Assembly: GCA_963552615.1 (NCBI GenBank)
Contig: CAUVKG010000003.1
Span: 15,163-79,162 of the forward strand
Length of the DNA stretch: 64,000 nucleotides
Source: an uncultured Candidatus Saccharibacteria bacterium
GTDB taxonomy: Bacteria > Patescibacteriota > Saccharimonadia > Saccharimonadales > Saccharimonadaceae
Reading direction: 5' to 3'
Shown: one piece after another, positions 10,215 through 41,856 of the stretch
Position numbering within the stretch: the stretch's first letter is position 1
Layout: every line of letters starts with the position of its first letter
Position numbers and translations under genes: made by a program
The notes under the pieces: model-generated
The model's database searches: none
What the model saw: only the letters and a program-made list of their open reading frames with translations
What the model was told of the DNA's origin: nothing

Positions 10215-10305
10215 TTGACAAATGCGGGGGTGTTACAGTGGAGACTATCAGGTTGTATGCGAGACCGGCTCACATGACCTGCGTTCTTTGAAAGGAGCTA
10301 GTAGA
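10215..10305 (+). promoter_or_regulatory. Copy A of a conserved TTGACA promoter plus 5'-UTR hairpin plus SD module
   Basis: TTGACA 10215-10220, GTGTTA block, hairpin 10249-10281 (CAGGT..ACCTG), GCGTTCTTTGAAAGGAG. Aligns with 40436-40524(-) and 41074-41163(-). Confidence 0.55.
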
Positions 10306-10347
10306 ATGTCAACTAATGCTTCGGATCTTAGGCTAGCTCAAATCTAA
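10306..10347 (+). CDS. 13-codon ORF (MSTNASDLRLAQI) behind leader copy A; possibly a decayed cassette ORF
   Basis: ATG 10306 lies 9 nt after AAGGAG. It overlaps the 3' end of the convergent ASCH gene by 20 nt. Confidence 0.2.
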   Translation: MSTNASDLRLAQI

Positions 10348-10666
10348 TGCCGATGACTCCGAATTGCACTTGCTTCTCGGGGCTATAGAATTCGTTAAGT
10401 GTGGCTATGAGGTTATCCTTGGTTGCGGCTTTGTCAGCTAATATAGCGATGTCAAAATCCTTACATAAGTCAACGAATGAGTCGTAGTGTAATAGCCCGA
10501 CAACTCTTGCTTGAACGCTTTTGTCATTAGATCCGGAAAACTCAATAAGGTCTCCCAGGTCAATCCGGCGACGTTTATCGTCAAAAAGTCGTAATTCTAT
10601 ACGTTTTGTGCCACCTTTGATATAGCTAAAATATGGCTCTTTCAAATGCATCTTATGTGTTTTCAT
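10328..10666 (-). CDS. ASCH (PUA-like) domain protein
   Basis: MHLKEPYFSYIKGGTKRIELRLFDDKRRRIDLGDLIEF is a typical ASCH N-terminal pattern. Confidence 0.65.
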   Translation of the reverse strand: MKTHKMHLKEPYFSYIKGGTKRIELRLFDDKRRRIDLGDLIEFSGSNDKSVQARVVGLLHYDSFVDLCKDFDIAILADKAATKDNLIATLNEFYSPEKQVQFGVIGIRFELA

Positions 10667-12220: not shown

Positions 12221-13717
12221 ATGAGTAATAGTGGAGGTGGTACTAGGCTTGCCCTGTATCGTAAGTATCGACCAACTAGCTTGGCTCAGGTGATCGGTCA
12301 GCCGCAAGTAACAGAAATATTACAAGCCTCGCTCGACCATGGCGCCTTTGCTCATGCTTATCTCTTTACCGGGCAGCGAGGTACCGGCAAGACGACCGTG
12401 GCTCGTATCCTGGCACATTTAGTCAACGGACTAGACTACAGCGACAACCTGAGCAACGACAGCATTGATATCATTGAGATAGATGCCGCCAGTAATAATG
12501 GCGTCGATGATGTGCGGCAGATCCGAGACAGCGTCCAGCTGGCACCGATGAACTGTCGCTACAAGATATATATCATCGACGAGTTTCATATGCTCAGCAA
12601 GCCGGCTTTCAACGCTCTACTCAAAACCATTGAGGAGCCGCCCGAGTACGTCATTTTCGTCCTCGCCACTACCGAGTTACAGAAGGTGCCGGCTACCATT
12701 TTGTCACGAGTGCAGCGGTTTCATTTCAAGCCCGTACCGGTCGATCTCTTAGCTAAACATCTGCGCATGATCGCTGAGTCGGAACATATCAACGTCGATG
12801 ACGATGCCCTGAGATTGATTGCTGAGCACGGTGGCGGCAGTGTGCGTGATGCGATTACTCTGCTGGATCAGCTAGCCGGCAACCAATCCATCACCGTGGA
12901 GACCGTCAATGACGTCCTGGGTCTGATCTCGCAAGCAGAGATGAGCCAATTAGCGACCAATATCACCGAAGGGAAACCTCAGCCGGTCATCAGCCAGGTT
13001 AACGAGCTGATCGGTAATGGAGTCGGTGCTACGGCTTTAGCCAAGCAACTAATCGACCACCTGACTAAGCTGGCACCGGATCAGCCCGAGCTTTATCGGC
13101 TAATAGAGCGCCTGTTGGAAGTCGGTCGAGCTGGCTTGCCCGAGATCAAGCTGATGGCTATCTTAGTCGACGCATCGTTACCGAGAGTGTCCACCAGTCC
13201 GTCAGTTGTACCTAGGGCTACGAAACCAGCTCAATCCACTGTAGCTCAAGTGACTGCTAAATCTACTCCGGTGTCCAAGCCCGCCGCTAAGGCTAGTTCG
13301 ACCGGTGACAGCCAGTCGAAGACGACAAACACTAAGAAAACTGCCCCAACTGCCGCTCCGGTATCAGCCGAGCCGGCAGAGGCAACCGAGTCGATCAAAG
13401 AGCTGGTCTGGGCGGATGTAATTAACCAACTGGCAGAGCAGAACCGTCCTTCTACTAAATCACTGCTGGAGCAGGCGGACTATCGCTACAGCGCTTCGAC
13501 GAATACTCTGACATTATTCTTTGGTAAGACCTTTCATCGCAAGCAAGCTAAGACCGGTCGCTTTCAAGATAGCTTGCTGACCACGCTGAACGAGCTCTAT
13601 CAGGTTAAGCCAACGATTGTCATATCAGAGGAGCCGGCTCCGCTTGACTCTGACGTCGCCGCAGTTCTAAGTGTAGTTGGTGGAGAGGTAACCACTATTA
13701 GCGATGGCACGATCTAG
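12221..13717 (+). CDS. dnaX: DNA polymerase III subunit gamma/tau
   Basis: YRPTSLAQVIGQ, Walker A GQRGTGKTT, IIDEFHMLS, SRVQRFHFK. Low-complexity Pro/Ala/Ser/Thr linker in the C-terminal half. Confidence 0.9.
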   Translation: MSNSGGGTRLALYRKYRPTSLAQVIGQPQVTEILQASLDHGAFAHAYLFTGQRGTGKTTVARILAHLVNGLDYSDNLSNDSIDIIEIDAASNNGVDDVRQIRDSVQLAPMNCRYKIYIIDEFHMLSKPAFNALLKTIEEPPEYVIFVLATTELQKVPATILSRVQRFHFKPVPVDLLAKHLRMIAESEHINVDDDALRLIAEHGGGSVRDAITLLDQLAGNQSITVETVNDVLGLISQAEMSQLATNITEGKPQPVISQVNELIGNGVGATALAKQLIDHLTKLAPDQPELYRLIERLLEVGRAGLPEIKLMAILVDASLPRVSTSPSVVPRATKPAQSTVAQVTAKSTPVSKPAAKASSTGDSQSKTTNTKKTAPTAAPVSAEPAEATESIKELVWADVINQLAEQNRPSTKSLLEQADYRYSASTNTLTLFFGKTFHRKQAKTGRFQDSLLTTLNELYQVKPTIVISEEPAPLDSDVAAVLSVVGGEVTTISDGTI

Positions 13718-15161
13718 CTCTACTTCAGCTGATTTATCTGATAGTCGCCCCGGTGACCAGCCACTGGTCGAAGCGGCTATTGCCGGCTCGGTTGACTACT
13801 CCGGCACGGTTGAGACCACTACTGTCGAGGGAGGTAAGCTCCCACCACAGAACTTGGCTGCCGAGATGTCTCTCCTGGGGGCGCTCCTGATTGATGATGA
13901 GACTCTGGTTGACATAGCCGACCAAGTCAAAACGGATGATTTCTACGATCGACGCCACCAGGCTATTTTTAAGGCTATCATGAAGCTGTATCAGAAGAAC
14001 GCTCGGGTCGATCTGCTGACCGTAAGTAGCGAGCTTAGTAAGGCGCACCAGCTTGATCAAGCCGGCGGGCGTAGCTACCTCAGTGATTTAACCAATACCA
14101 TACCGAGCGCCAGCCACGCCGTCGACTACGCTCGGATTGTTCGGGAGGCATCCGTCCGACGCAAGCTGACTAAGGCAGGAGAAGTAATCTCGGATCTGGC
14201 CAACAAATCAGCAGACGACATCCAGGAGATTCTATCGCAGGCGGAGGCGAGCCTCTATGCTGTCAGCTCCGGCTCGCAGCACAGCGACATGGTTTCACTG
14301 GAATCTTTACTCAGTGACGCCTTCGAAAAGATGTCCTACCTGCACCAGAATAAAGGCGAGCTACGGGGCATCCGCACCGGCTTTAAGGACTTAGACAAGA
14401 TGACGGCGGGCTTGCAGAAGTCCGACCTGATCGTCCTGGCGGCTCGGCCGGCTATGGGCAAGTCCACCCTGGCTCAGAATATCGCTTACAATGTGGCGAT
14501 GCGGGAAGGCAAGTCAGTTCTCTTCTTTAGTCTGGAGATGAGCAACTCACAGGTGGTTGACCGGATGATCTCAGAGGCCTCCGGGGTTGATAGCTGGAAT
14601 ATCCGCACCGGCAACCTTACCCAAGAGGACTTTAGTAAGATTAGCGACACCATGGGGGAGATGAGCGAGATACCGATCAAGTTTGAAGACAAACCCGGCA
14701 TGACCATGCTGGAGATGAAGGTCAAAGCGCAGCGAGAGGCGCATAAGAATCCTCTCGGGCTGATCATCGTTGACTATCTCCAGCTAATGTCGGGCAGTCG
14801 CCAGTACGGCGATAACCGGGTACAAGAGATCAGCGAGATCTCCCGGGGGCTCAAGCTGATGGCACGAGAGCTGGACGTACCGGTGCTGGCGCTGTCTCAG
14901 CTGAGCCGTTCCGTCGAGCAGCGCCCCGACAAGCGGCCGATGCTATCTGACCTGCGAGAGTCCGGATCTATCGAGCAGGATGCCGATATCGTCATGTTCG
15001 TCTACCGCGAGGATTATTACAATCCCGACACTGAGCGTCAGCACATCACTGACCTGATTATCGGTAAACACCGTAACGGTCCGGTCGGTACCGTCGAGCT
15101 GTACTTCCATCCCGAGAAGCTGAAGTTTATGTCGCTGGAGAAGCGCAAGCACGATAAGTAG
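13704..15161 (+). CDS. dnaB: Replicative DNA helicase DnaB
   Basis: PPQNLAAEMSLLGALL, Walker A ARPAMGKST, IIVDYLQLM, ALSQLSRSVEQR, SDLRESGSIEQDAD. Confidence 0.9.
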   Translation: MARSSSTSADLSDSRPGDQPLVEAAIAGSVDYSGTVETTTVEGGKLPPQNLAAEMSLLGALLIDDETLVDIADQVKTDDFYDRRHQAIFKAIMKLYQKNARVDLLTVSSELSKAHQLDQAGGRSYLSDLTNTIPSASHAVDYARIVREASVRRKLTKAGEVISDLANKSADDIQEILSQAEASLYAVSSGSQHSDMVSLESLLSDAFEKMSYLHQNKGELRGIRTGFKDLDKMTAGLQKSDLIVLAARPAMGKSTLAQNIAYNVAMREGKSVLFFSLEMSNSQVVDRMISEASGVDSWNIRTGNLTQEDFSKISDTMGEMSEIPIKFEDKPGMTMLEMKVKAQREAHKNPLGLIIVDYLQLMSGSRQYGDNRVQEISEISRGLKLMARELDVPVLALSQLSRSVEQRPDKRPMLSDLRESGSIEQDADIVMFVYREDYYNPDTERQHITDLIIGKHRNGPVGTVELYFHPEKLKFMSLEKRKHDK

Positions 15162-35081: not shown

Positions 35082-36344
35082 ATGAAGCAATCACCTGATG
35101 TCGAGCTGACCATTAGCACTAAGACTTTTATTCGGTTCTGGCTGGTGATTCTGGGGTTCATTACATTAGCTTTGGTTTGCTGGGCAGCTCGGATGCCTCT
35201 TGCCATGTTAGCCATCTCATTCTTCATGGCGCTGGTGCTTAATCGCCCCGTCTCTTTCATCGCTCGTTATTTACCGGGCAAATCCCGCACCGTGGCCATC
35301 TTCATCGCTTACTTGATTATCGCTATCATGATCGGCGTCTTACTACTTACCATAGTGCCGATCTTCGCTCGCCAGCTATCCTCGTTCCTCGCTAATCTAC
35401 CTAGTATGGTCAATCACCTAAAGCAAGAGTCGAGCTGGCTGGGTAGTTTATTGGCCCATTATCATCTGACCGACCAGTTTAACCAATGGCTGGTTGACGC
35501 CGGGGCGCAGCTGAGGCACGCCACCAGCAATATGGGGGCAGCCTTCTTCGACGCTCTATCCAATATCTTCGTCGTCTTAGGTAATACCTGCCTGGTACTC
35601 TTCGCTACTTTTTTCATGCTGGTCGAAGGGCCGAACTGGGAAGAGAAGTTCTGGCGTCTAGCCTATACTAATCCGACCCGTCGTCGACGCCACCGCCGGA
35701 TGGCTCGCAAGATGTACGATGTCATCAGTGGCTACATGGTCGGGCAGGCGACAGTCGGGGTGATCAGCGGCACTTTTACCGCTGTAGTGGTCGGCATCTT
35801 AGCCACAGTCTTTCGTTTCGATATCAGCCTGGTCTGGCCGGCTTGGATCACCATCTTTATGATGATCTTCGTGCCGATGTTTGGCGCCGTCATCGGTGGC
35901 ACGATTGTTACCCTGATTTTGCTGGTGTATTCTCCGCCGGCTGCTATTATCTACGCCATTGTCTTCACCATTGAGCAGCAGATCGAGAATAATTTCGTCC
36001 AGCCCCGAATCCAGTCCAGACACATGGAAACCTCCGCTCTGATCATCCTAGTCTCCATGACCCTGGGGATGCAAGCCGGTGGGTTACTCGGGGCAATGAT
36101 CGCCATTCCGCTGTCCGGTTGTGTCGTTATCTTGATGCGTGATTTCCTGCAGTCACATGGGCGAGGCGAGATAAACCAAGATAGCTCCGGTGAGCCGCAC
36201 CTTGCCGGTGTATCCAGCGCACCGGTCATCTTCGTGCCGGCTGATCGCCAGTACATCGGACCGGAGCTGGATATCATTCCACCCCTAAGCAACGACCGTG
36301 GCCAGAGACGTCGTCGTCGGCCAAGCGGTCGCTCTAAGCACTAG
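35082..36344 (+). CDS. AI-2E (PerM/UPF0118) family transporter
   Basis: Eight-TM layout with a central soluble loop and typical family sequence texture. Basic Arg-rich C-terminal tail. Confidence 0.7.
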   Translation: MKQSPDVELTISTKTFIRFWLVILGFITLALVCWAARMPLAMLAISFFMALVLNRPVSFIARYLPGKSRTVAIFIAYLIIAIMIGVLLLTIVPIFARQLSSFLANLPSMVNHLKQESSWLGSLLAHYHLTDQFNQWLVDAGAQLRHATSNMGAAFFDALSNIFVVLGNTCLVLFATFFMLVEGPNWEEKFWRLAYTNPTRRRRHRRMARKMYDVISGYMVGQATVGVISGTFTAVVVGILATVFRFDISLVWPAWITIFMMIFVPMFGAVIGGTIVTLILLVYSPPAAIIYAIVFTIEQQIENNFVQPRIQSRHMETSALIILVSMTLGMQAGGLLGAMIAIPLSGCVVILMRDFLQSHGRGEINQDSSGEPHLAGVSSAPVIFVPADRQYIGPELDIIPPLSNDRGQRRRRRPSGRSKH

Positions 36345-37599
36345 TCCGGTAGTAGCGACGGCAGAAATCATCACGAAATTGCTGGTAGCTACCACTCATG
36401 ATAGCCCGGCGTATCTGCTCACACAGCCGGATGATAAAGCGAGTATTGTGTGCCGTCAGCAGATTAAACGCCCTAGCTCGTTCAGTATGCTCAGCTGATT
36501 TGAGCAGAGCTCGTAGCTCGGCTCTAGTATGACCAGCCCGACAGGTCGGACAGTCGCAACCCGGAGATAGTACTTGTATGTCATCCCGATACATTGATCG
36601 CTTGATATTATAATTACCGTCTAGAGTATAGATTCTCCCGTGACGAGCCTCCCGAGTCGGGGCTACGCAATCAAAAGTATCCACCCCGGCTTCTACGCCG
36701 ACGAAGATATCGTCAGGGTGACTTAGACCCAGTAAATGGCGGGGCTTGTCGGCGGGTAAGATTTCATTCATCGCCTCTAAAATCTCGCTCAGGTTTGCTT
36801 TATCTAGTGCGCCGCCCAGCCCGAAGCCGTCAAAATAGTGACCATCGATATTCATCCTTGAGATATCTCGAGCCGCCCGACGCCTCAAGTCGAGAAAATA
36901 GCTACCCTGAAGTACTCCATAGAGAGCCTGGTAGGGGCGATCTGAGCGCAGAGCCGTCTGTCTGATATGCTCAGCTAGCCCACGCTCTGCCCAGCGCCTA
37001 GTCCGCTCCAGCGAGCGGACATTATACTCATAAGTATCATTGATATTAGTCAGCTCATCAAAAGACATCATCACATCCGCTCCGATCTTGTGCTGAGTAG
37101 CGATCGATATCTCCGGGGTAAACTTGATGATTCGACCGCTGAATGGATCACGAAACTCCACCCCCTCTTCATCGACCAGCGCCAAACGCTCGTCCGGCTC
37201 ACGTAGCTCGCTCTGATTAGCTTTGTCACCCGCCATAGAAATCACCTTACCCAGACCTGACCCCAGCGACATTACCTGAAAGCCGCCCGAGTCAGTGAAG
37301 GTTGGACCCTGCCAACCCGACCACTGAGCCAATCCACCGCTAGCCGAGATAATAGTTGCCCGACGATACAGGTGGTAGCCATTGCTCAACATGACCTGCG
37401 CCCCGACTGCCCGCATGTCTGACGGTGGCAAGAACCGCACCGAGCCCATCGTCCCGACCAAGTTAAAGTTCGGCGTCTTGATATCGCCATGTGGTGTGCG
37501 AATGACGCCGGCTCGCATCAACGGATAGCCGGCATCACCCTGGGACACTATCCGGAAGCCAAAGCTTGACTGATTCACACTAGATATTATATCAGCCAT
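36334..37599 (-). CDS. tgt: tRNA-guanine transglycosylase (queuine tRNA-ribosyltransferase)
   Basis: IKTPNFNLVGT, TDSGGFQV, Zn site CDCPTC...H. Confidence 0.9.
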   Translation of the reverse strand: MADIISSVNQSSFGFRIVSQGDAGYPLMRAGVIRTPHGDIKTPNFNLVGTMGSVRFLPPSDMRAVGAQVMLSNGYHLYRRATIISASGGLAQWSGWQGPTFTDSGGFQVMSLGSGLGKVISMAGDKANQSELREPDERLALVDEEGVEFRDPFSGRIIKFTPEISIATQHKIGADVMMSFDELTNINDTYEYNVRSLERTRRWAERGLAEHIRQTALRSDRPYQALYGVLQGSYFLDLRRRAARDISRMNIDGHYFDGFGLGGALDKANLSEILEAMNEILPADKPRHLLGLSHPDDIFVGVEAGVDTFDCVAPTREARHGRIYTLDGNYNIKRSMYRDDIQVLSPGCDCPTCRAGHTRAELRALLKSAEHTERARAFNLLTAHNTRFIIRLCEQIRRAIMSGSYQQFRDDFCRRYYRTSA

Positions 37600-39819: not shown

Positions 39820-39863
39820 CTCTTCTCCTTAAAAGTTACATAGTAGGGCAACAAAATAAGCTT

Positions 39864-39938
39864 TGGTTGGGATGGAGGGATTCGAACCCCCGAATACCAG
39901 GACCAAAACCTGGGGCCTTACCACTTGGCGACATCCCA
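39864..39938 (-). tRNA. tRNA-Gln (anticodon UUG)
   Basis: Hand-folded. Acceptor UGGGAUG/CAUCCCA with U1-A72, anticodon arm CCAGG-UUUUGGU-CCUGG, T arm GGGGG-UUCGAAU-CCCUC, encoded ACCA. Closely resembles E. coli tRNA-Gln. Confidence 0.85.
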
Positions 39939-39976
39939 ATAAAGCTAATAAGATTATACACCATTCCGAGGTCGGT

Positions 39977-40078
39977 AAAAAAGGAAAATCCCCCTACTCG
40001 TAAGTAGGGGGACTGGAGGGTGGATAGAGATGCCGGCGAGCCGGCGCACAAAAAACATGCGCTGACCCGCCGGAGCAA
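39977..40078 (-). repeat. Conserved ~100-nt structured 3' module, copy 1 (includes terminator 39977-40011)
   Basis: A 45-nt block is identical to 40873-40917. Terminator stem CCCCCTAC/GTAGGGGG is followed on the minus strand by ATTTTCCTTTTTT. Confidence 0.7.
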
Positions 40079-40081
40079 GCG

Positions 40082-40435
40082 CTAGCTCTTAAGGGCTGAC
40101 GCCCTCAAAAGCTTGGGGTCGCCTAAGATCAGGCGACCATCCACTTGCACCCCCTGAACAGGGGTTGTAAGGACTAGCTCCTCCTCTTTAGAGGAGGAGC
40201 CGTTCATCTCGGAGCAACGGTTGTCACCGCTGCTCCGAGTCTCTCTCTGCAGAGCAAACAAATGTTGCTCTGCTTTCTCGATACTCTCGAGGGCTCGCTC
40301 AAGCGAGTCCTCGAGACAAGCACCTGCTACCGAGCGGGCGCTTTCAAGCGCCTGCTCTAGCTGGCTACGAGCTCCCTGGAGCTCGTAGCCAATATTTAAC
40401 GTTCTAAACGACACACACTCTTCCATATCATACAT
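40082..40435 (-). CDS. Hypothetical 117-aa protein (cassette ORF B; helical, Glu/Leu/Ala-rich N-terminal half)
   Basis: ATG lies 5 nt after GGAGGA of leader copy B. The stop lies a few nt before the 3' module. Confidence 0.6.
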   Translation of the reverse strand: MYDMEECVSFRTLNIGYELQGARSQLEQALESARSVAGACLEDSLERALESIEKAEQHLFALQRETRSSGDNRCSEMNGSSSKEEELVLTTPVQGVQVDGRLILGDPKLLRASALKS

Positions 40436-40524
40436 ATTTCCTCCAAAGAACGCAGGTCATACGAGCTTTTCTCGCATGCAACCTGATAGTGTTCATTCAT
40501 AACACCCTTATCCTTATTTGTCAA
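40436..40524 (-). promoter_or_regulatory. Copy B of the conserved TTGACA promoter plus 5'-UTR hairpin plus SD module
   Basis: TTGACA (40519-40524 rc), 17 nt, TATGAA. Hairpin 40453-40485, then GCGTTCTTTGGAGGA. Confidence 0.6.
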
Positions 40525-40610
40525 GTAGCGTCCTACATTAACGCCTTAACTGCAAAGGATGAGCTCAATAAAGACACGTTTCAAGTTTAGTCCCGTGGTT
40601 TAATGGATTT

Positions 40611-40810
40611 TTGGAAAGTCAATTAACCGGAAAGGACGTTAGAAACGTGTCTAACAACAAGTATATACAACTTTGCTACGATGAACGTATAGTTATCGAG
40701 AATAGGTTAAAGAATGGTGAATCATACACTGCTATTGCCAAGTCGCTTGGACGCTCAACCAGTACTATCTCTCGTGAGGTTAATAGCTTTATTGAGGAGC
40801 AAATACAAAG
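40611..40810 (+). pseudogene. IS30-family transposase N-terminal HTH remnant (only ~65 aa of similarity)
   Basis: YDERIVIENRLKNGESYTAIAKSLGRSTSTISREVN matches the IS30 HTH_38 pattern (LGRSxSTISREI). The frame then runs into the 3' module repeat and there is no DDE domain. Confidence 0.5.
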
Positions 40811-40821
40811 ACTGCCAGGTC

Positions 40822-40917
40822 GAAAACGGGAAAATCCCCCTGCTCGAAAGCAGGGGGGTGGAGGGTGGATAGGATGCCGGCGAGCCGGCGCACAAAAAAC
40901 ATGCGCTGACCCGCCGG
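40822..40917 (-). repeat. Conserved ~100-nt structured 3' module, copy 2 (includes terminator 40822-40857)
   Basis: Aligns with 39977-40078. The terminator stem is changed in a compensatory way to CCCCCTGC/GCAGGGGG. Confidence 0.7.
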
Positions 40918-40923
40918 GTAGAA

Positions 40924-41073
40924 CTAACTCTTAGATTCACCTCCTTCCAGAGGCTTGACGACAAAGGACTCCAGACGAAATCCCCTTTCCTCGCAGGCGG
41001 CGATAGCCGCCACTGCGATTTCGATCATCTCGGGGCTAACCTCGCCCCGAACATTGCTTACCTCATAGTCCAT
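40924..41073 (-). CDS. Hypothetical 49-aa protein (cassette ORF C: MDYEVSNVRGEVSPEMIEIAVAAIAACEERGFRLESFVVKPLEGGESKS)
   Basis: Not in the ORF track (under 60 aa). ATG lies 6 nt after AAGGAGGG of leader copy C. The stop abuts 3' module copy 2. Confidence 0.5.
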   Translation of the reverse strand: MDYEVSNVRGEVSPEMIEIAVAAIAACEERGFRLESFVVKPLEGGESKS

Positions 41074-41163
41074 TGTTCCCTCCTTAAGGAACGCAAGCCA
41101 TCCGGTCTGTTACCGGATGCAACTTGATGGTATTACTCTAACACTTTATCTCTCTTTTGTCAA
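41074..41163 (-). promoter_or_regulatory. Copy C of the conserved TTGACA promoter plus 5'-UTR hairpin plus SD module
   Basis: TTGACA (41158-41163 rc), 17 nt, TAGAGT. Hairpin 41094-41126 with 8-bp perfect stem CATCCGGT/ACCGGATG. Confidence 0.6.
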
Positions 41164-41316
41164 GCTTGGGCATAATAGAGCGGCTTTACACTGAGGCAGC
41201 AAGACCCGCCATTCTTCACCCGGCATCCTCAGCCATACCACATTAGCCCTTGACTATTATTTATTATAGATATATTTTATCCACGATGAATATTAAATAT
41301 CAGCCGGGGAGGCCGT

Positions 41317-41856
41317 ATGAAGCTAACTAAGAGCTTTGAGCAGGGAGTCTGCCTGATGGCAATCCTCGCCACTCAGACTAAGGCTATCCCCGTCTCATCT
41401 CGCACTTTACAGCGACGCCTGCCGACATCTATGACTTATAGCCAGAAGTTGCTGCGCAAGCTGGTTGTCGCCGGTATCGTCAAATCAGTGCCGGGGAATA
41501 GTGGTGGATTCGCCCTGGCTCGTCCCATCGGGCAGATCTCCATCTTGGAGGTGGTCGAAGCACTGGAGGGCAGAGTAGACAGCTTTCCCAGTACGGGGCT
41601 CTTTAGTGCTATCTTTACTAACCAAACCGGTGCCAACGCTCACCAAGCCATCACTACAGCCGACCAGGCGGTACACCGTATCTTCATGACCGCCGACGGC
41701 GTCTGGCGACAGGTGCTGAGCGAAGTAAATATCGGCGATATCATTGACCGAGTCATTTCGTCACATCGCCATTTGCCTCAGCTGGACTGGAACGACCCCG
41801 GCGTCGAGACCAATGCTATCTTCACCATTAACCAAAAGGAGGCCACAGATGATTAA
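41317..41856 (+). CDS. Rrf2-family transcriptional regulator (no Cys cluster)
   Basis: MKLTKSFEQGVCLMAILA...SSRTLQRRL...LLRKLVVAGIVKSVPGNSGGFALARP wHTH pattern. Confidence 0.7.
   Translation: MKLTKSFEQGVCLMAILATQTKAIPVSSRTLQRRLPTSMTYSQKLLRKLVVAGIVKSVPGNSGGFALARPIGQISILEVVEALEGRVDSFPSTGLFSAIFTNQTGANAHQAITTADQAVHRIFMTADGVWRQVLSEVNIGDIIDRVISSHRHLPQLDWNDPGVETNAIFTINQKEATDD

Follow-up and report, generated by a model that had tools for sequence, protein, structure and literature searches.

A structured 3' module common to interchangeable small-protein cassettes at one locus of Saccharibacteria, and its probable role as a cis-acting 3' UTR

Fold-back inhibition is a feature of the type I toxin mRNA of hok/sok. 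The ends of other bacterial transcripts carry stabilisers, such as the 5' stem-loops of ompA and aprE, the 3' retroregulator of cry1Aa and the STAB-SD of cryIIIA (Bacillus thuringiensis). At the DNA level, phage morons are known from lambdoid phage genomics as autonomous units of promoter, ORF and terminator. The icaR mRNA of Staphylococcus aureus shows an interaction between its 5' and 3' UTRs, the latter bearing the motif UCCCCUG, which is complementary to the Shine-Dalgarno (SD) region (PMC3868564). A 5'/3'-UTR interaction was also described for hbs of Bacillus subtilis (PMC5737220). In Helicobacter pylori, the type I toxin mRNA of aapA1/IsoA1 is subject to fold-back inhibition (PMC5416894, PMC6733600), with mRNA folding and 3' processing described for aapA1 (PMC5416894).

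Here, a 64-kb stretch of Saccharibacteria DNA (the window) was found to contain two copies of a module of ~100–110 nt, whose RNA strand is the minus strand (table 1). The copies belong to two alleles of one hypervariable slot, joined across an IS30 remnant. The module is probably a cis-acting 3' UTR of interchangeable small-protein cassettes and would also serve as a homology arm for allele exchange. Both copies lie 3–6 nt past the stop codon of a minus-strand ORF, in agreement with the original prediction, which had placed them within a few nucleotides of the stop codons. The identical 45-nt core that it had reported occurs exactly at 40029–40073 and 40873–40917 only (0 expected from 100 shuffles), and flanking similarity widens each core copy to the full module. 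A covariance model recovered the two copies and nothing else above noise in the whole 64 kb. The similarity between the cassettes already begins in the final codons of the ORFs (AAGAG[C/T]TAG).

In the RNA, an 18-bp hairpin comes first, then a linker that is devoid of G and contains an invariant CCUCC, and last an intrinsic terminator with a stem of 9 bp. The arms of the hairpin (CCGGCGGGUCAGCGCAUG / UGUGCGCCGGCUCGCCGG) form one A.C mismatch and several G-U pairs, the latter valid on the minus strand only. The minus-strand fold of the original prediction exists, with a stem longer than it had described. By folding, the terminator of both copies has a G+C-rich stem of 9–12 bp, a UNCG tetraloop (UACG or UUCG) and the U tract AUUUUCC(U/C)..., on the sense strand and downstream of the ORF, as in intrinsic terminators in general; a terminator scan picks up copy 1 (12 pairs, tail TTCCTTTTTT). 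For the two minus-strand copies the folds reach z = -5.9 and -4.1; on the plus strand they are weaker. In the Rfam search of the 64 kb, the tRNA alone passed the gathering threshold and no curated RNA family was assigned to the module; a permissive scan of 39940–41200 gave chance-level matches only, far below threshold.

Each cassette has its own predicted promoter (TTGACA-17-TAnnnT) and a 5' leader with a hairpin, which always accompanies the 3' module. This leader hairpin is 97.7% paired and shows compensatory changes in 6 of its 13 pairs; its score was reached by 0 of 500 shuffles. The promoter and leader are common to both units, as sequence comparison confirmed, and the arrangement proposed at the outset, namely two adjacent units of promoter, unrelated ORF and 3' module, is supported.

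Table 1. Features of the two cassettes and their borders (positions in the 64-kb window)
Feature	Position	Strand	Basis or detail
tRNA-Gln (anticodon UUG), just downstream of module 1	39864..39938	(-)	ARAGORN; Rfam tRNA
3' module copy 1, after 117-aa ORF	39971..40080	(-)	similarity, folding, covariance model (124 bits)
Copy 1 U tract	39977-39989	(-)	
Copy 1 terminator stem-loop	39990-40011	(-)	UACG loop, A-U allele
Copy 1 G-free linker	40012-40032	(-)	CCUCC at 40015-40019
Copy 1 hairpin	40033-40073	(-)	
117-aa acidic ORF, cassette 1	40082..40435	(-)	frame kept through 3n indels; 183 homologous clusters; dN/dS
Cassette 1 promoter and 5' leader	40436..40524	(-)	read from sequence; transcription start inferred
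Cassette 1 SD GGAGG	40440-40444	(-)	
Cassette 1 leader hairpin	40452-40485	(-)	
Cassette 1 -10 TATGAA	40496-40501	(-)	
Cassette 1 -35 TTGACA	40519-40524	(-)	
Truncated left end of IS30-family IS, between cassettes	40533..40828	(+)	Pfam HTH_38; BLAST to L053, L113, L134, L024
3' module copy 2, after 49-aa ORF	40817..40924	(-)	similarity, folding, covariance model (116 bits)
Copy 2 U tract	40823-40835	(-)	partly IS-derived
Copy 2 terminator stem-loop	40836-40857	(-)	UUCG loop, G-C allele
Copy 2 linker	40858-40876	(-)	CCUCC at 40860-40864
Copy 2 hairpin	40877-40917	(-)	
49-aa acidic ORF, cassette 2	40924..41073	(-)	ORF list; strain comparison
Cassette 2 promoter and 5' leader	41074..41163	(-)	promoter scan: 10/12 matches, TG
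Cassette 2 SD GGAGG	41079-41083	(-)	
Cassette 2 leader hairpin	41093-41126	(-)	
Cassette 2 -10 TAGAGT, TG before	41135-41140	(-)	
Cassette 2 -35 TTGACA	41158-41163	(-)	
Rrf2-family regulator gene, divergent	41317..41856	(+)	Pfam Rrf2 1.5e-24; gene tables

Among ~60 related Saccharibacteria contigs the module is confined to one locus, with one or two copies per genome as counted on contigs. In all related contigs the variable locus is bounded on the left by the Rrf2 gene; its right border, likewise fixed, is the tRNA-Gln gene. The search for further copies suggested by the original prediction revealed no repeat family: collections of genomes, metagenomes and viruses were scanned by pattern, all retrieved copies lie between these two genes, and most pattern matches in genome contigs are due to chance in GC-rich genomes. 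The cassettes occupy one hypervariable slot in a human-associated clade of Saccharibacteria (TM7); the bacterium of the window is a mouth/gut member.

The tRNA-Gln gene is also a prophage attachment site in related genomes. In the prophage-bearing contigs L180–L182, homology to the window ends at 39862 and the prophage begins at the 3' end of the tRNA, on the opposite side from the cassette. A phage origin of the cassette was rejected, the matches in IMG/VR having proved to be junction contigs of host and prophage. Like morons, the cassettes are self-contained, with a sigma-70-type promoter, a small ORF and an intrinsic terminator, and their presence beside a prophage attachment site varies. 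Unlike morons, they are not part of the prophage but flank the tRNA on its host side, have conserved structured UTRs in common and act as alleles of one chromosomal slot.

The slot holds alternative small acidic ORFs of 49, 55, 75, 79, 117, 120 and 125 aa, which are unrelated or mosaic. All of them are set between the common promoter with its leader hairpin and the 3' module, which in the sense RNA follows the stop codon of each allele at once. For instance, the C-terminal ...ACEERGFRLESFVVKPLEGGESKS of the 49-aa ORF recurs in the 50-, 55- and 125-aa alleles of other strains. No ORF class is tied to one terminator allele, linker form or downstream context, each being found with both versions of all three, and some strains have a single cassette (L013/L016 and L021/L025). 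These single cassettes, mosaic ORFs and reassortments bear out the replacement of ORFs between fixed flanks that had been anticipated. One ORF class meets the module inside the 5' arm of the hairpin and some alleles at the last codons; junctions that differ in this way between alleles point to exchange by homology and not at a specific site. The gene and Pfam tables for the 10 kb on either side contain neither an integrase nor another recombinase. The module was originally considered a possible recombination substrate; this holds in the sense of homology arms, whereas a site-specific site is disfavoured by the missing integrase and the differing junctions.

The tandem junction of the two cassettes passes through the IS30 fragment with microhomology. 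The fragment corresponds to the HTH_38 N-terminal part of the transposase, a full copy of which (412 aa) is present in L053, and its junction with module 2 is identical in several species. A recent local segmental duplication, named beforehand as evidence against the module, is not what the strains and the IS30 junction show: the ORFs are unrelated, each cassette stands alone in some strains and a truncated IS30 lies at the junction. The two neighbouring genes have the same leader and tail because they are alternative versions of one variable slot, side by side. The two module copies of the window are kept alike by gene conversion, which can explain their identical 45-nt core.

The variation of the module was followed in 58 distinct copies. 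Their hairpin is 92% paired and 12 of its pairs change on one side only, via G-U, so that its covariation is almost wholly one-sided; the search patterns themselves, by ascertainment, account for part of the near-invariance of its 3' arm. The terminator stem is 100% paired and has one compensatory pair (GC in 30 copies, AU in 27 and GU in 1). In other strains, both terminator alleles are found behind each of the two ORFs and at both positions, and in L024 the alleles are exchanged between its two copies. The difference seen originally between the two terminators (A-U versus G-C) is therefore real and compensatory but not copy-specific: since ORFs, linkers, terminators and contexts reassort freely, the pair represents a polymorphism with two alleles. 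All aligned module variants have CCUCC unchanged, amid a linker that varies in length and sequence.

The ORFs of the slot are protein-coding, with dN/dS of ~0.2–0.3. For the 117-aa ORF, a non-coding structured RNA was ruled out by indels of 3n, by third positions being the most variable and by dN/dS values of 0.15–0.33. The RNA structure within this ORF is nevertheless real. Its mRNA is a chain of ~9 conserved hairpins, and the structure of the ORFs exceeds that of synonymous shuffles (z = -10.7 for the 117-aa ORF, and -12.1). The transcript folds with z = -15.2, and the most structured 300-nt stretch of the 64 kb (-6.8 sd) is the cassette transcript. The hairpin chain includes 11 compensatory pairs, and the ORF stems have 34 G.U versus 10 A.C; the compensatory substitutions in the coding hairpins change amino acids. 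In the 75-aa allele the ORF has no excess of structure (z = -0.2), and therefore the hairpin armour is not universal. The original prediction did not extend to these extreme hairpin chains, nor to the joining of the alleles by IS30 or the invariant anti-SD CCUCC.

No family was assigned to the ORF products in Pfam, PHROGs, NCBIfam, PADLOC or PDB sequences. An AlphaFold model (pLDDT 68) gave generic helical-hairpin (Rop-like) matches in Foldseek with E ~0.7, which do not count as evidence. All products have a pI of 4.2–5.3, a GRAVY below 0 and no 19-residue Kyte-Doolittle stretch above 1.4, and a type I toxin was ruled out by this hydropathy.

The CCUCC of each module is complementary to the GGAGG of the same mRNA, with 6–7 bp possible, so that a C-rich 3' UTR motif faces the SD of its own mRNA as in icaR; such complementarity is generic, any CCUCC fitting any SD. 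The thermodynamic pairing probability of SD and linker is 0.57 and 0.98 in the two mRNAs of the window and at least 0.3 in 22 of 26 distinct cassettes, in folds whose long-range pairs are unreliable as a class. RNAalifold, run with no constraints, closes the consensus of eight sequences by GGAGG:CCUCC. Covariation cannot support this pairing because both motifs are invariant. According to the folding models, CCUCC would likely mask the ribosome site of the same mRNA.

In the proposed mechanism, the terminator would end the transcript in cis and insulate the tRNA-Gln gene, and the hairpin and terminator together would bar 3' exonucleases. The single-stranded CCUCC may bind the ribosome-binding site GGAGG of the same mRNA; by this closure the fully hairpinned transcript would become a translationally masked, RNase-resistant form, as in the mRNAs of icaR and type I toxins. 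As DNA, the conserved leader and module may act as homology arms, between which the ORF would be replaced by homologous recombination.

This anatomy resembles that of icaR and hbs in its C-rich 3' UTR anti-SD (CCACCCUCC in the place of UCCCCUG) and in the proposed control of initiation and RNase access. It differs in that the pairing is predicted, sequence homology is absent and the phylum is Saccharibacteria; moreover, the 3' UTR is short (~100 nt), common to unrelated ORF alleles and placed on a continuous chain of hairpins. With hok/sok and aapA1 the cassettes have in common a compact structured mRNA with a small ORF and its own transcription, a 3' element predicted to sequester the SD, possible 3' processing and a variable locus associated with mobile elements. 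On the contrary, the products are acidic and soluble (49–125 aa), have no hydrophobic helix, and the promoter scan showed neither an antisense RNA gene nor a promoter for one, the single promoter-like site that faces the cassettes on the plus strand being inside the IS30 fragment. The hydrophobic character of such toxins being absent, the cassettes are not members of the type I family and only the logic of their RNA is alike. Finally, as in transcripts with end stabilisers, this small transcript, which is probably expressed at a high level, has a stem-loop at or close to its predicted 5' end and, at the 3' end, a stable hairpin with a terminator; here the 5' and 3' elements are combined in a pair that is common to alternative ORFs, and an anti-SD is part of the 3' element.

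A rather unlikely explanation is that the module is a passive end, i.e., a strong terminator with a fortuitous hairpin at the flank of a recombination hot spot, whose copies are homogenised by gene conversion and have no regulatory function. The module diverges (p-distance of 0.03–0.22) just slightly less than the neighbouring genes do at synonymous sites (dS of only 0.16–0.36), and because the compared genomes are so close, sequence conservation alone is weak evidence of function. Gene conversion between copies is evident in L024, and the one-sided changes of the hairpin also fit a passive end. Against it, the substitutions in the hairpin overwhelmingly preserve pairing, and on the sense strand only. 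CCUCC has persisted in a changing linker, the partner hairpin of the leader covaries strongly and the remaining transcript is under clear structural selection.

It is doubtful, on the other side, that the cassettes go beyond a cis-acting 3' UTR and form a new class of hypervariable, hairpin-armoured RNA–protein modules of episymbiotic Saccharibacteria, with transcripts that fold over nearly their whole length into conserved hairpins and are closed by SD:anti-SD pairing of the dedicated 5' leader with the 3' module, and with the RNA itself as a functional product. Such a module might be a store of dormant mRNA freed by 3' processing, or a very stable RNA for interactions with the host or phages, on which the acidic helical-hairpin proteins could act. 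A function in conflict or interaction would then be suggested by the diversifying exchange of alleles in a slot that has an IS30 hot spot and a prophage attachment site as its bounds.

It is improbable that the module gives rise to a 3'-UTR-derived sRNA, in which processing would free a stable fragment of ~100–140 nt, made up of the hairpin and a CCUCC seed, acting in trans on other ribosome-binding sites. An unpaired C-rich seed beside a stable hairpin, as found here, is typical of the SD-targeting C-rich sRNAs of Firmicutes. The RNA runs searched are Logan contigs of uncertain library type, and most of their matches fall on the multicopy IS30 part or the tRNA. In a single run (X15), the only contig from 20 kb of the window covers 40014–40149 at a depth of 26.6, with Illumina adapters on both sides. 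This fragment starts in the interior of the ORF, spans the hairpin and stops with ...CCACCCUCCA at the base of the terminator; CCUCC is retained at its 3' end. However, it is one contig, possibly made of PCR duplicates of one molecule, from a library whose type is a guess ('RNA?'), and it is absent from the sibling runs and the other RNA runs searched. No specific target can be predicted, because the seed matches every SD, and the literature search yielded nothing relevant on a transcriptome or sRNA of Saccharibacteria for this locus.

Variable ORFs that are each followed by an imperfect palindrome, in tandem and with presence/absence polymorphism, also recall integron cassettes, and an attC-like site would be a hairpin in single-stranded DNA, the target of a recombinase for the insertion or excision of the cassettes. 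This is highly improbable, since every cassette has its own promoter and no recombinase gene appears in the 10 kb to each side. In addition, the G-U pattern favours RNA of the sense strand and selection at the RNA level, the allele junctions vary (inside the stem or at the last codons), and a tandem junction through IS30 with microhomology looks homologous or illegitimate.

A dispersed mobile repeat (REP/MITE-like) or a plus-strand mini-ORF antisense to the module (GGAGGGTGG-N8-ATG, MPASRRTKNMR) is hardly credible: the palindrome adjoins an IS and its plus strand reads as a good SD with an ATG, but the former was ruled out because the element is found just twice in the window and once or twice in each genome, at an unvarying locus, and has neither terminal inverted repeats nor target duplications, and the latter was rejected since loop-length indels shift its frame and stop between variants and since the promoter scan showed no plus-strand promoter-like site facing the cassettes except one inside the IS30 fragment.

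To our knowledge, few regulators are known from Saccharibacteria and other CPR bacteria, whose genomes are tiny, and hardly any cis-regulatory RNAs have been described there. The locus adds two uncatalogued structured UTR elements, a covarying 5' leader hairpin and a 3' module of hairpin, anti-SD and terminator. It is also a natural case of alternative ORFs swapped between fixed regulatory ends, which could potentially be used as a portable expression cassette for genetically difficult organisms. Selection for RNA hairpins acts on its coding sequences at the same time (z of about -11 to -15, and compensatory changes), a combination of coding and strong hairpin selection that, as far as we know, is seldom seen other than in RNA viruses and toxin mRNAs. 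Should the predicted closure between the 5' and 3' ends be true, post-transcriptional control of the icaR/hok type would reach a new phylum and genes that are not toxins.

The 45-nt core occurs exactly twice in the window, where chance expectation is none, and similarity between the two module copies reaches about 100–110 nt in ungapped and gapped comparisons. As the original prediction had it, each copy closely follows a minus-strand ORF: it begins 3–6 nt past the stop codon, and in both ORFs the last codons already fall within the region of similarity. On the minus strand both copies fold into an 18-bp hairpin whose loop is U-rich, a linker of ~20 nt that lacks G, and a G+C-rich stem of 9–12 bp, capped by a UNCG tetraloop and with a U tract after it (z-scores −5.9 and −4.1). 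The plus-strand fold is weaker because several pairs are G-U. A terminator scan detected copy 1, a covariance model run over the 64 kb found the two copies only (124 and 116 bits), and no matching family exists in Rfam. Both units also have the promoter TTGACA-17-TAnnnT and a leader hairpin at the 5′ end, so that they share non-coding parts at either end, as had been proposed.

Coordinates of the cassettes and associated features
Feature	Sequence	Position	Strand
Module copy 1	window	39971-40080	minus
Module copy 2	window	40817-40924	minus
45-nt core	window	40029-40073; 40873-40917
117-aa ORF (cassette 1)	window	40082-40435	minus
49-aa ORF (cassette 2)	window	40924-41073	minus
Cassette ORF forming a chain of hairpins	L107	5492-6058 (oriented)
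Truncated left end of IS30-family element (HTH_38)	window	40533-40828	plus
Full IS30 copy	L053	640-1973
Different IS30	L180	~13300-14226
Contig of sequencing run X15	window	40014-40149	minus
Plus-strand mini-ORF reading	window	40015-40070; 40860-40915	plus
Third promoter and leader hairpin	window	10215-10348	plus
ASCH-domain gene	window	10328-10666	minus
Three tandem large ORFs	window	18617-27857	plus
tRNA-Gln 3′ end (prophage start)	window	39862-39864
Prophage-bearing IMG/VR contigs	L180; L181; L182	1-12600; 607-4433; 790-2319
Mosaic neighbourhood	window	36334-37599; 43900

In plus-strand orientation the module offers a strong SD (GGAGGGTGG), a spacer of 8–9 nt, an ATG and the 11-codon ORF MPASRRTKNMR. 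Its frame and stop vary among module variants, so that this ORF probably arises only as a side effect of CCUCC...CAU. A third copy of promoter and leader hairpin (TTGACA-17-TACAGT; ...ATCAGGTTGTATGCGAGACCGGCTCACATGACCTGCGTTC...) leads only into a 13-codon ORF (MSTNASDLRLAQI), which enters the 3′ end of the convergent ASCH-domain gene, with no 3′ module beside it. Possible readings of this third copy are an orphan cassette, a decayed one or an antisense promoter.

Many metagenome contigs from the human mouth and gut carry identical versions of the flanking proteins and of both small ORFs. When bacterial assemblies, one genome per species, were scanned with a pattern, real copies came from Candidatus Saccharibacteria MAGs only, the other matches being chance hits in GC-rich genomes. 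Further copies came from protein-guided look-ups and from metagenome (26 loci) and viral-contig (3 loci) scans; a covariance-model search of 57 sources gave 74 matches, or 58 distinct sequences. On every contig long enough to show it, a divergent Rrf2-family gene lies upstream of the module; most of these contigs have tRNA-Gln(UUG) directly after the module. Since this position is constant wherever contigs extend and each contig carries one or two copies, the module is a locus-specific element and not a dispersed repeat; the search for further copies proposed with the original prediction found them only in this Rrf2/tRNA-Gln slot. A REP or MITE is thereby dismissed.

The ORF upstream of the module differs between genomes, in accordance with the earlier suggestion of unrelated ORFs replacing each other among strains. 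The slot holds a 117-aa class (variants of 116–127 aa and a truncated 79-aa form), a 49-aa class (relatives of 50, 55 and 125 aa with the same C-terminal ...ACEERGFRLESFVVKPLEGGESKS), a 75-aa class, and chimeras of ~120 aa whose N-terminal part comes from the 125-aa class and whose C-terminal beta domain is that of the 117-aa class. The 49-aa cassette stands alone in two related contigs (L013 and L016) and the 117-aa cassette in two others (L021 and L025). All products are acidic, without hydrophobic segments, and none matched a known protein family. The mRNAs are not those of type I toxins, since the products are acidic, soluble proteins; an integron attC is excluded by the lack of an integrase within 10 kb on either side and by the own promoter of each cassette.

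The two window cassettes are separated by the truncated IS30-family end. A related contig (L053) carries a full copy at the same position, with a 412-aa transposase (NF033563, 192 bits), roughly a dozen nt ahead of the −35 box in a 117-type cassette. Module 2 meets the IS interior at a junction that is identical in several species and shows microhomology, which suggests that a single illegitimate joining event put an "A" allele before an IS-bearing "B" allele. The IS30-family elements of the window, L053 and L180 occupy approximately the same spot, about 12–28 nt upstream of the cassette −35, and in sequencing run X2 the same IS end adjoins a type-A cassette promoter; this site resembles a hot spot for insertion of IS30. 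In L083 and L145, elements of other IS types (IS3/IS481-like) lie just past the module.

No ORF class is restricted to one terminator allele, one linker form (CUAU or UCUAU) or one downstream context; each occurs with both. In L024 the terminator alleles of the two copies are swapped relative to the window, and in the 75-aa class the junction with the module falls within the hairpin's 5′ arm. These arrangements show that homologous exchange and gene conversion pass through the module, in keeping with its suggested role as a recombination substrate. The compensatory terminator pair reported originally does exist, but as an allelic dimorphism (G-C 30, A-U 27 and G-U 1 among the 58 distinct copies), linked to a UUCG/UACG loop difference, and not as a distinction of copy 1 from copy 2 as such.

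Across the 58 copies the module terminator is 100% paired and the hairpin 92%, with 12 of its 18 pairs varying one-sidedly via G-U intermediates valid on the sense strand only. The alignment is moderate evidence for a selected RNA structure, because the hairpin shows hardly any two-sided changes, its 3′ arm is partly fixed by the search patterns that collected the copies, and the genomes are close (neighbor-gene dS 0.16–0.36 vs module p-distance 0.03–0.22). For the 5′ leader hairpin the alignment evidence of selection is strong: among 20 distinct sequences it is 97.7% paired with compensatory changes in 6 of 13 pairs, a covariation reached by none of 500 shuffles.

Unexpectedly, the cassette ORFs are themselves chains of near-perfect hairpins. 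The 506-nt cassette-1 transcript has a fold z of −15.2, and no other 300-nt stretch of the window is as structured (−6.8 sd). Synonymous-codon shuffles that kept the protein gave z = −10.7 and −12.1 for the 117- and 125-aa ORFs, about −3.3 for the 49- and 55-aa ORFs, −0.2 for the 75-aa ORF and −2.2 to +2.0 for five neighboring genes. Despite this structure, indels of 3n that keep the frame, most variable third positions and a dN/dS of 0.15–0.33 identify the 117-type ORF as protein-coding. RNAalifold of eight 117-type cassettes gave about eleven local hairpins with compensatory changes at 11 pairs, several of which, in our reading of the alignment, alter amino acids. In the 79-aa variants a 67-nt deletion removed two hairpins; the downstream ones are kept, with covariation, though untranslated there. 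By a strand-neutral definition, G.U outcomes exceed A.C in the ORF stems (34 vs 10), which favors selection at the sense RNA level.

Position, strand, anatomy, leader association and reassortment of the module are matters of observation, and we consider it very probable that it is the common 3′ UTR and terminator of allelic cassettes. It would end transcription and insulate the tRNA-Gln gene, for which a separate −10 box of the TATAAT type seems to lie just downstream, while the module's two stable stems would guard the mRNA 3′ end. Nearly all of the transcript lies in local hairpins, leaving single-stranded the ribosome-binding site GGAGG and the linker CCUCC, two invariant and perfectly complementary pentamers. 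Folding predicts their pairing in the window's two mRNAs (p = 0.57 and 0.98) and in 22 of 26 distinct cassettes (p ≥ 0.3), and unconstrained RNAalifold of 8 sequences places the same closing helix in the consensus. This complementarity is generic, and covariation is uninformative for it as both motifs are invariant; masking of the SD by the linker is thus a tentative proposal. The mechanism as a whole we hold to be somewhat favored. The predicted pairing resembles the 5′–3′ UTR interactions of icaR (PMC3868564) and hbs (PMC5737220), and also type I toxin mRNAs that are inhibited by folding back, for instance aapA1 (PMC5416894, PMC6733600). The module probably works like a regulatory or stabilizing 3′ UTR paired with a 5′ leader.

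In run X15, a single contig (depth 26.6, adapters on both sides) is all that is present from 20 kb of the window. It spans the ORF interior and the hairpin, and its 3′ end, ...CCACCCUCCA(C), falls at the base of the terminator stem. The contig may consist of PCR duplicates, its library type is a guess and sibling runs lack such a fragment; it is a possible hint of 3′ processing.

Related genomes have, in place of the 278-aa gene side, a prophage (RecT, YqaJ exonuclease, portal and CHAP-SH3 lysin) that begins exactly at the tRNA 3′ end. It therefore seems that phages of this Saccharibacteria clade use tRNA-Gln(UUG) as an attachment site. The cassettes lie on the host side of this tRNA, which excludes a phage moron. 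The wider neighborhood is mosaic between strains (L021, L145 and L148-L151): some carry an AAA_14/DUF4143 gene after the ABC-2/DUF3533 gene, and in others a GmrSD-type (type IV restriction) gene occupies the TGT gene position beyond ackA. The dS of neighboring genes differs strongly within one genome pair (for instance, with L021, 0.00 for the 278-aa gene vs 0.32 for ackA), a sign of frequent recombination. Elsewhere in the window, three tandem ORFs of ~980–1040 aa with near-identical internal DNA segments (e.g., around 21459 and 24679) resemble an array of paralogs that encode large proteins, possibly surface ones.

We rate the locus as an uncatalogued pair of 5′ leader and 3′ module that brackets interchangeable, hairpin-armored small ORFs in Saccharibacteria.
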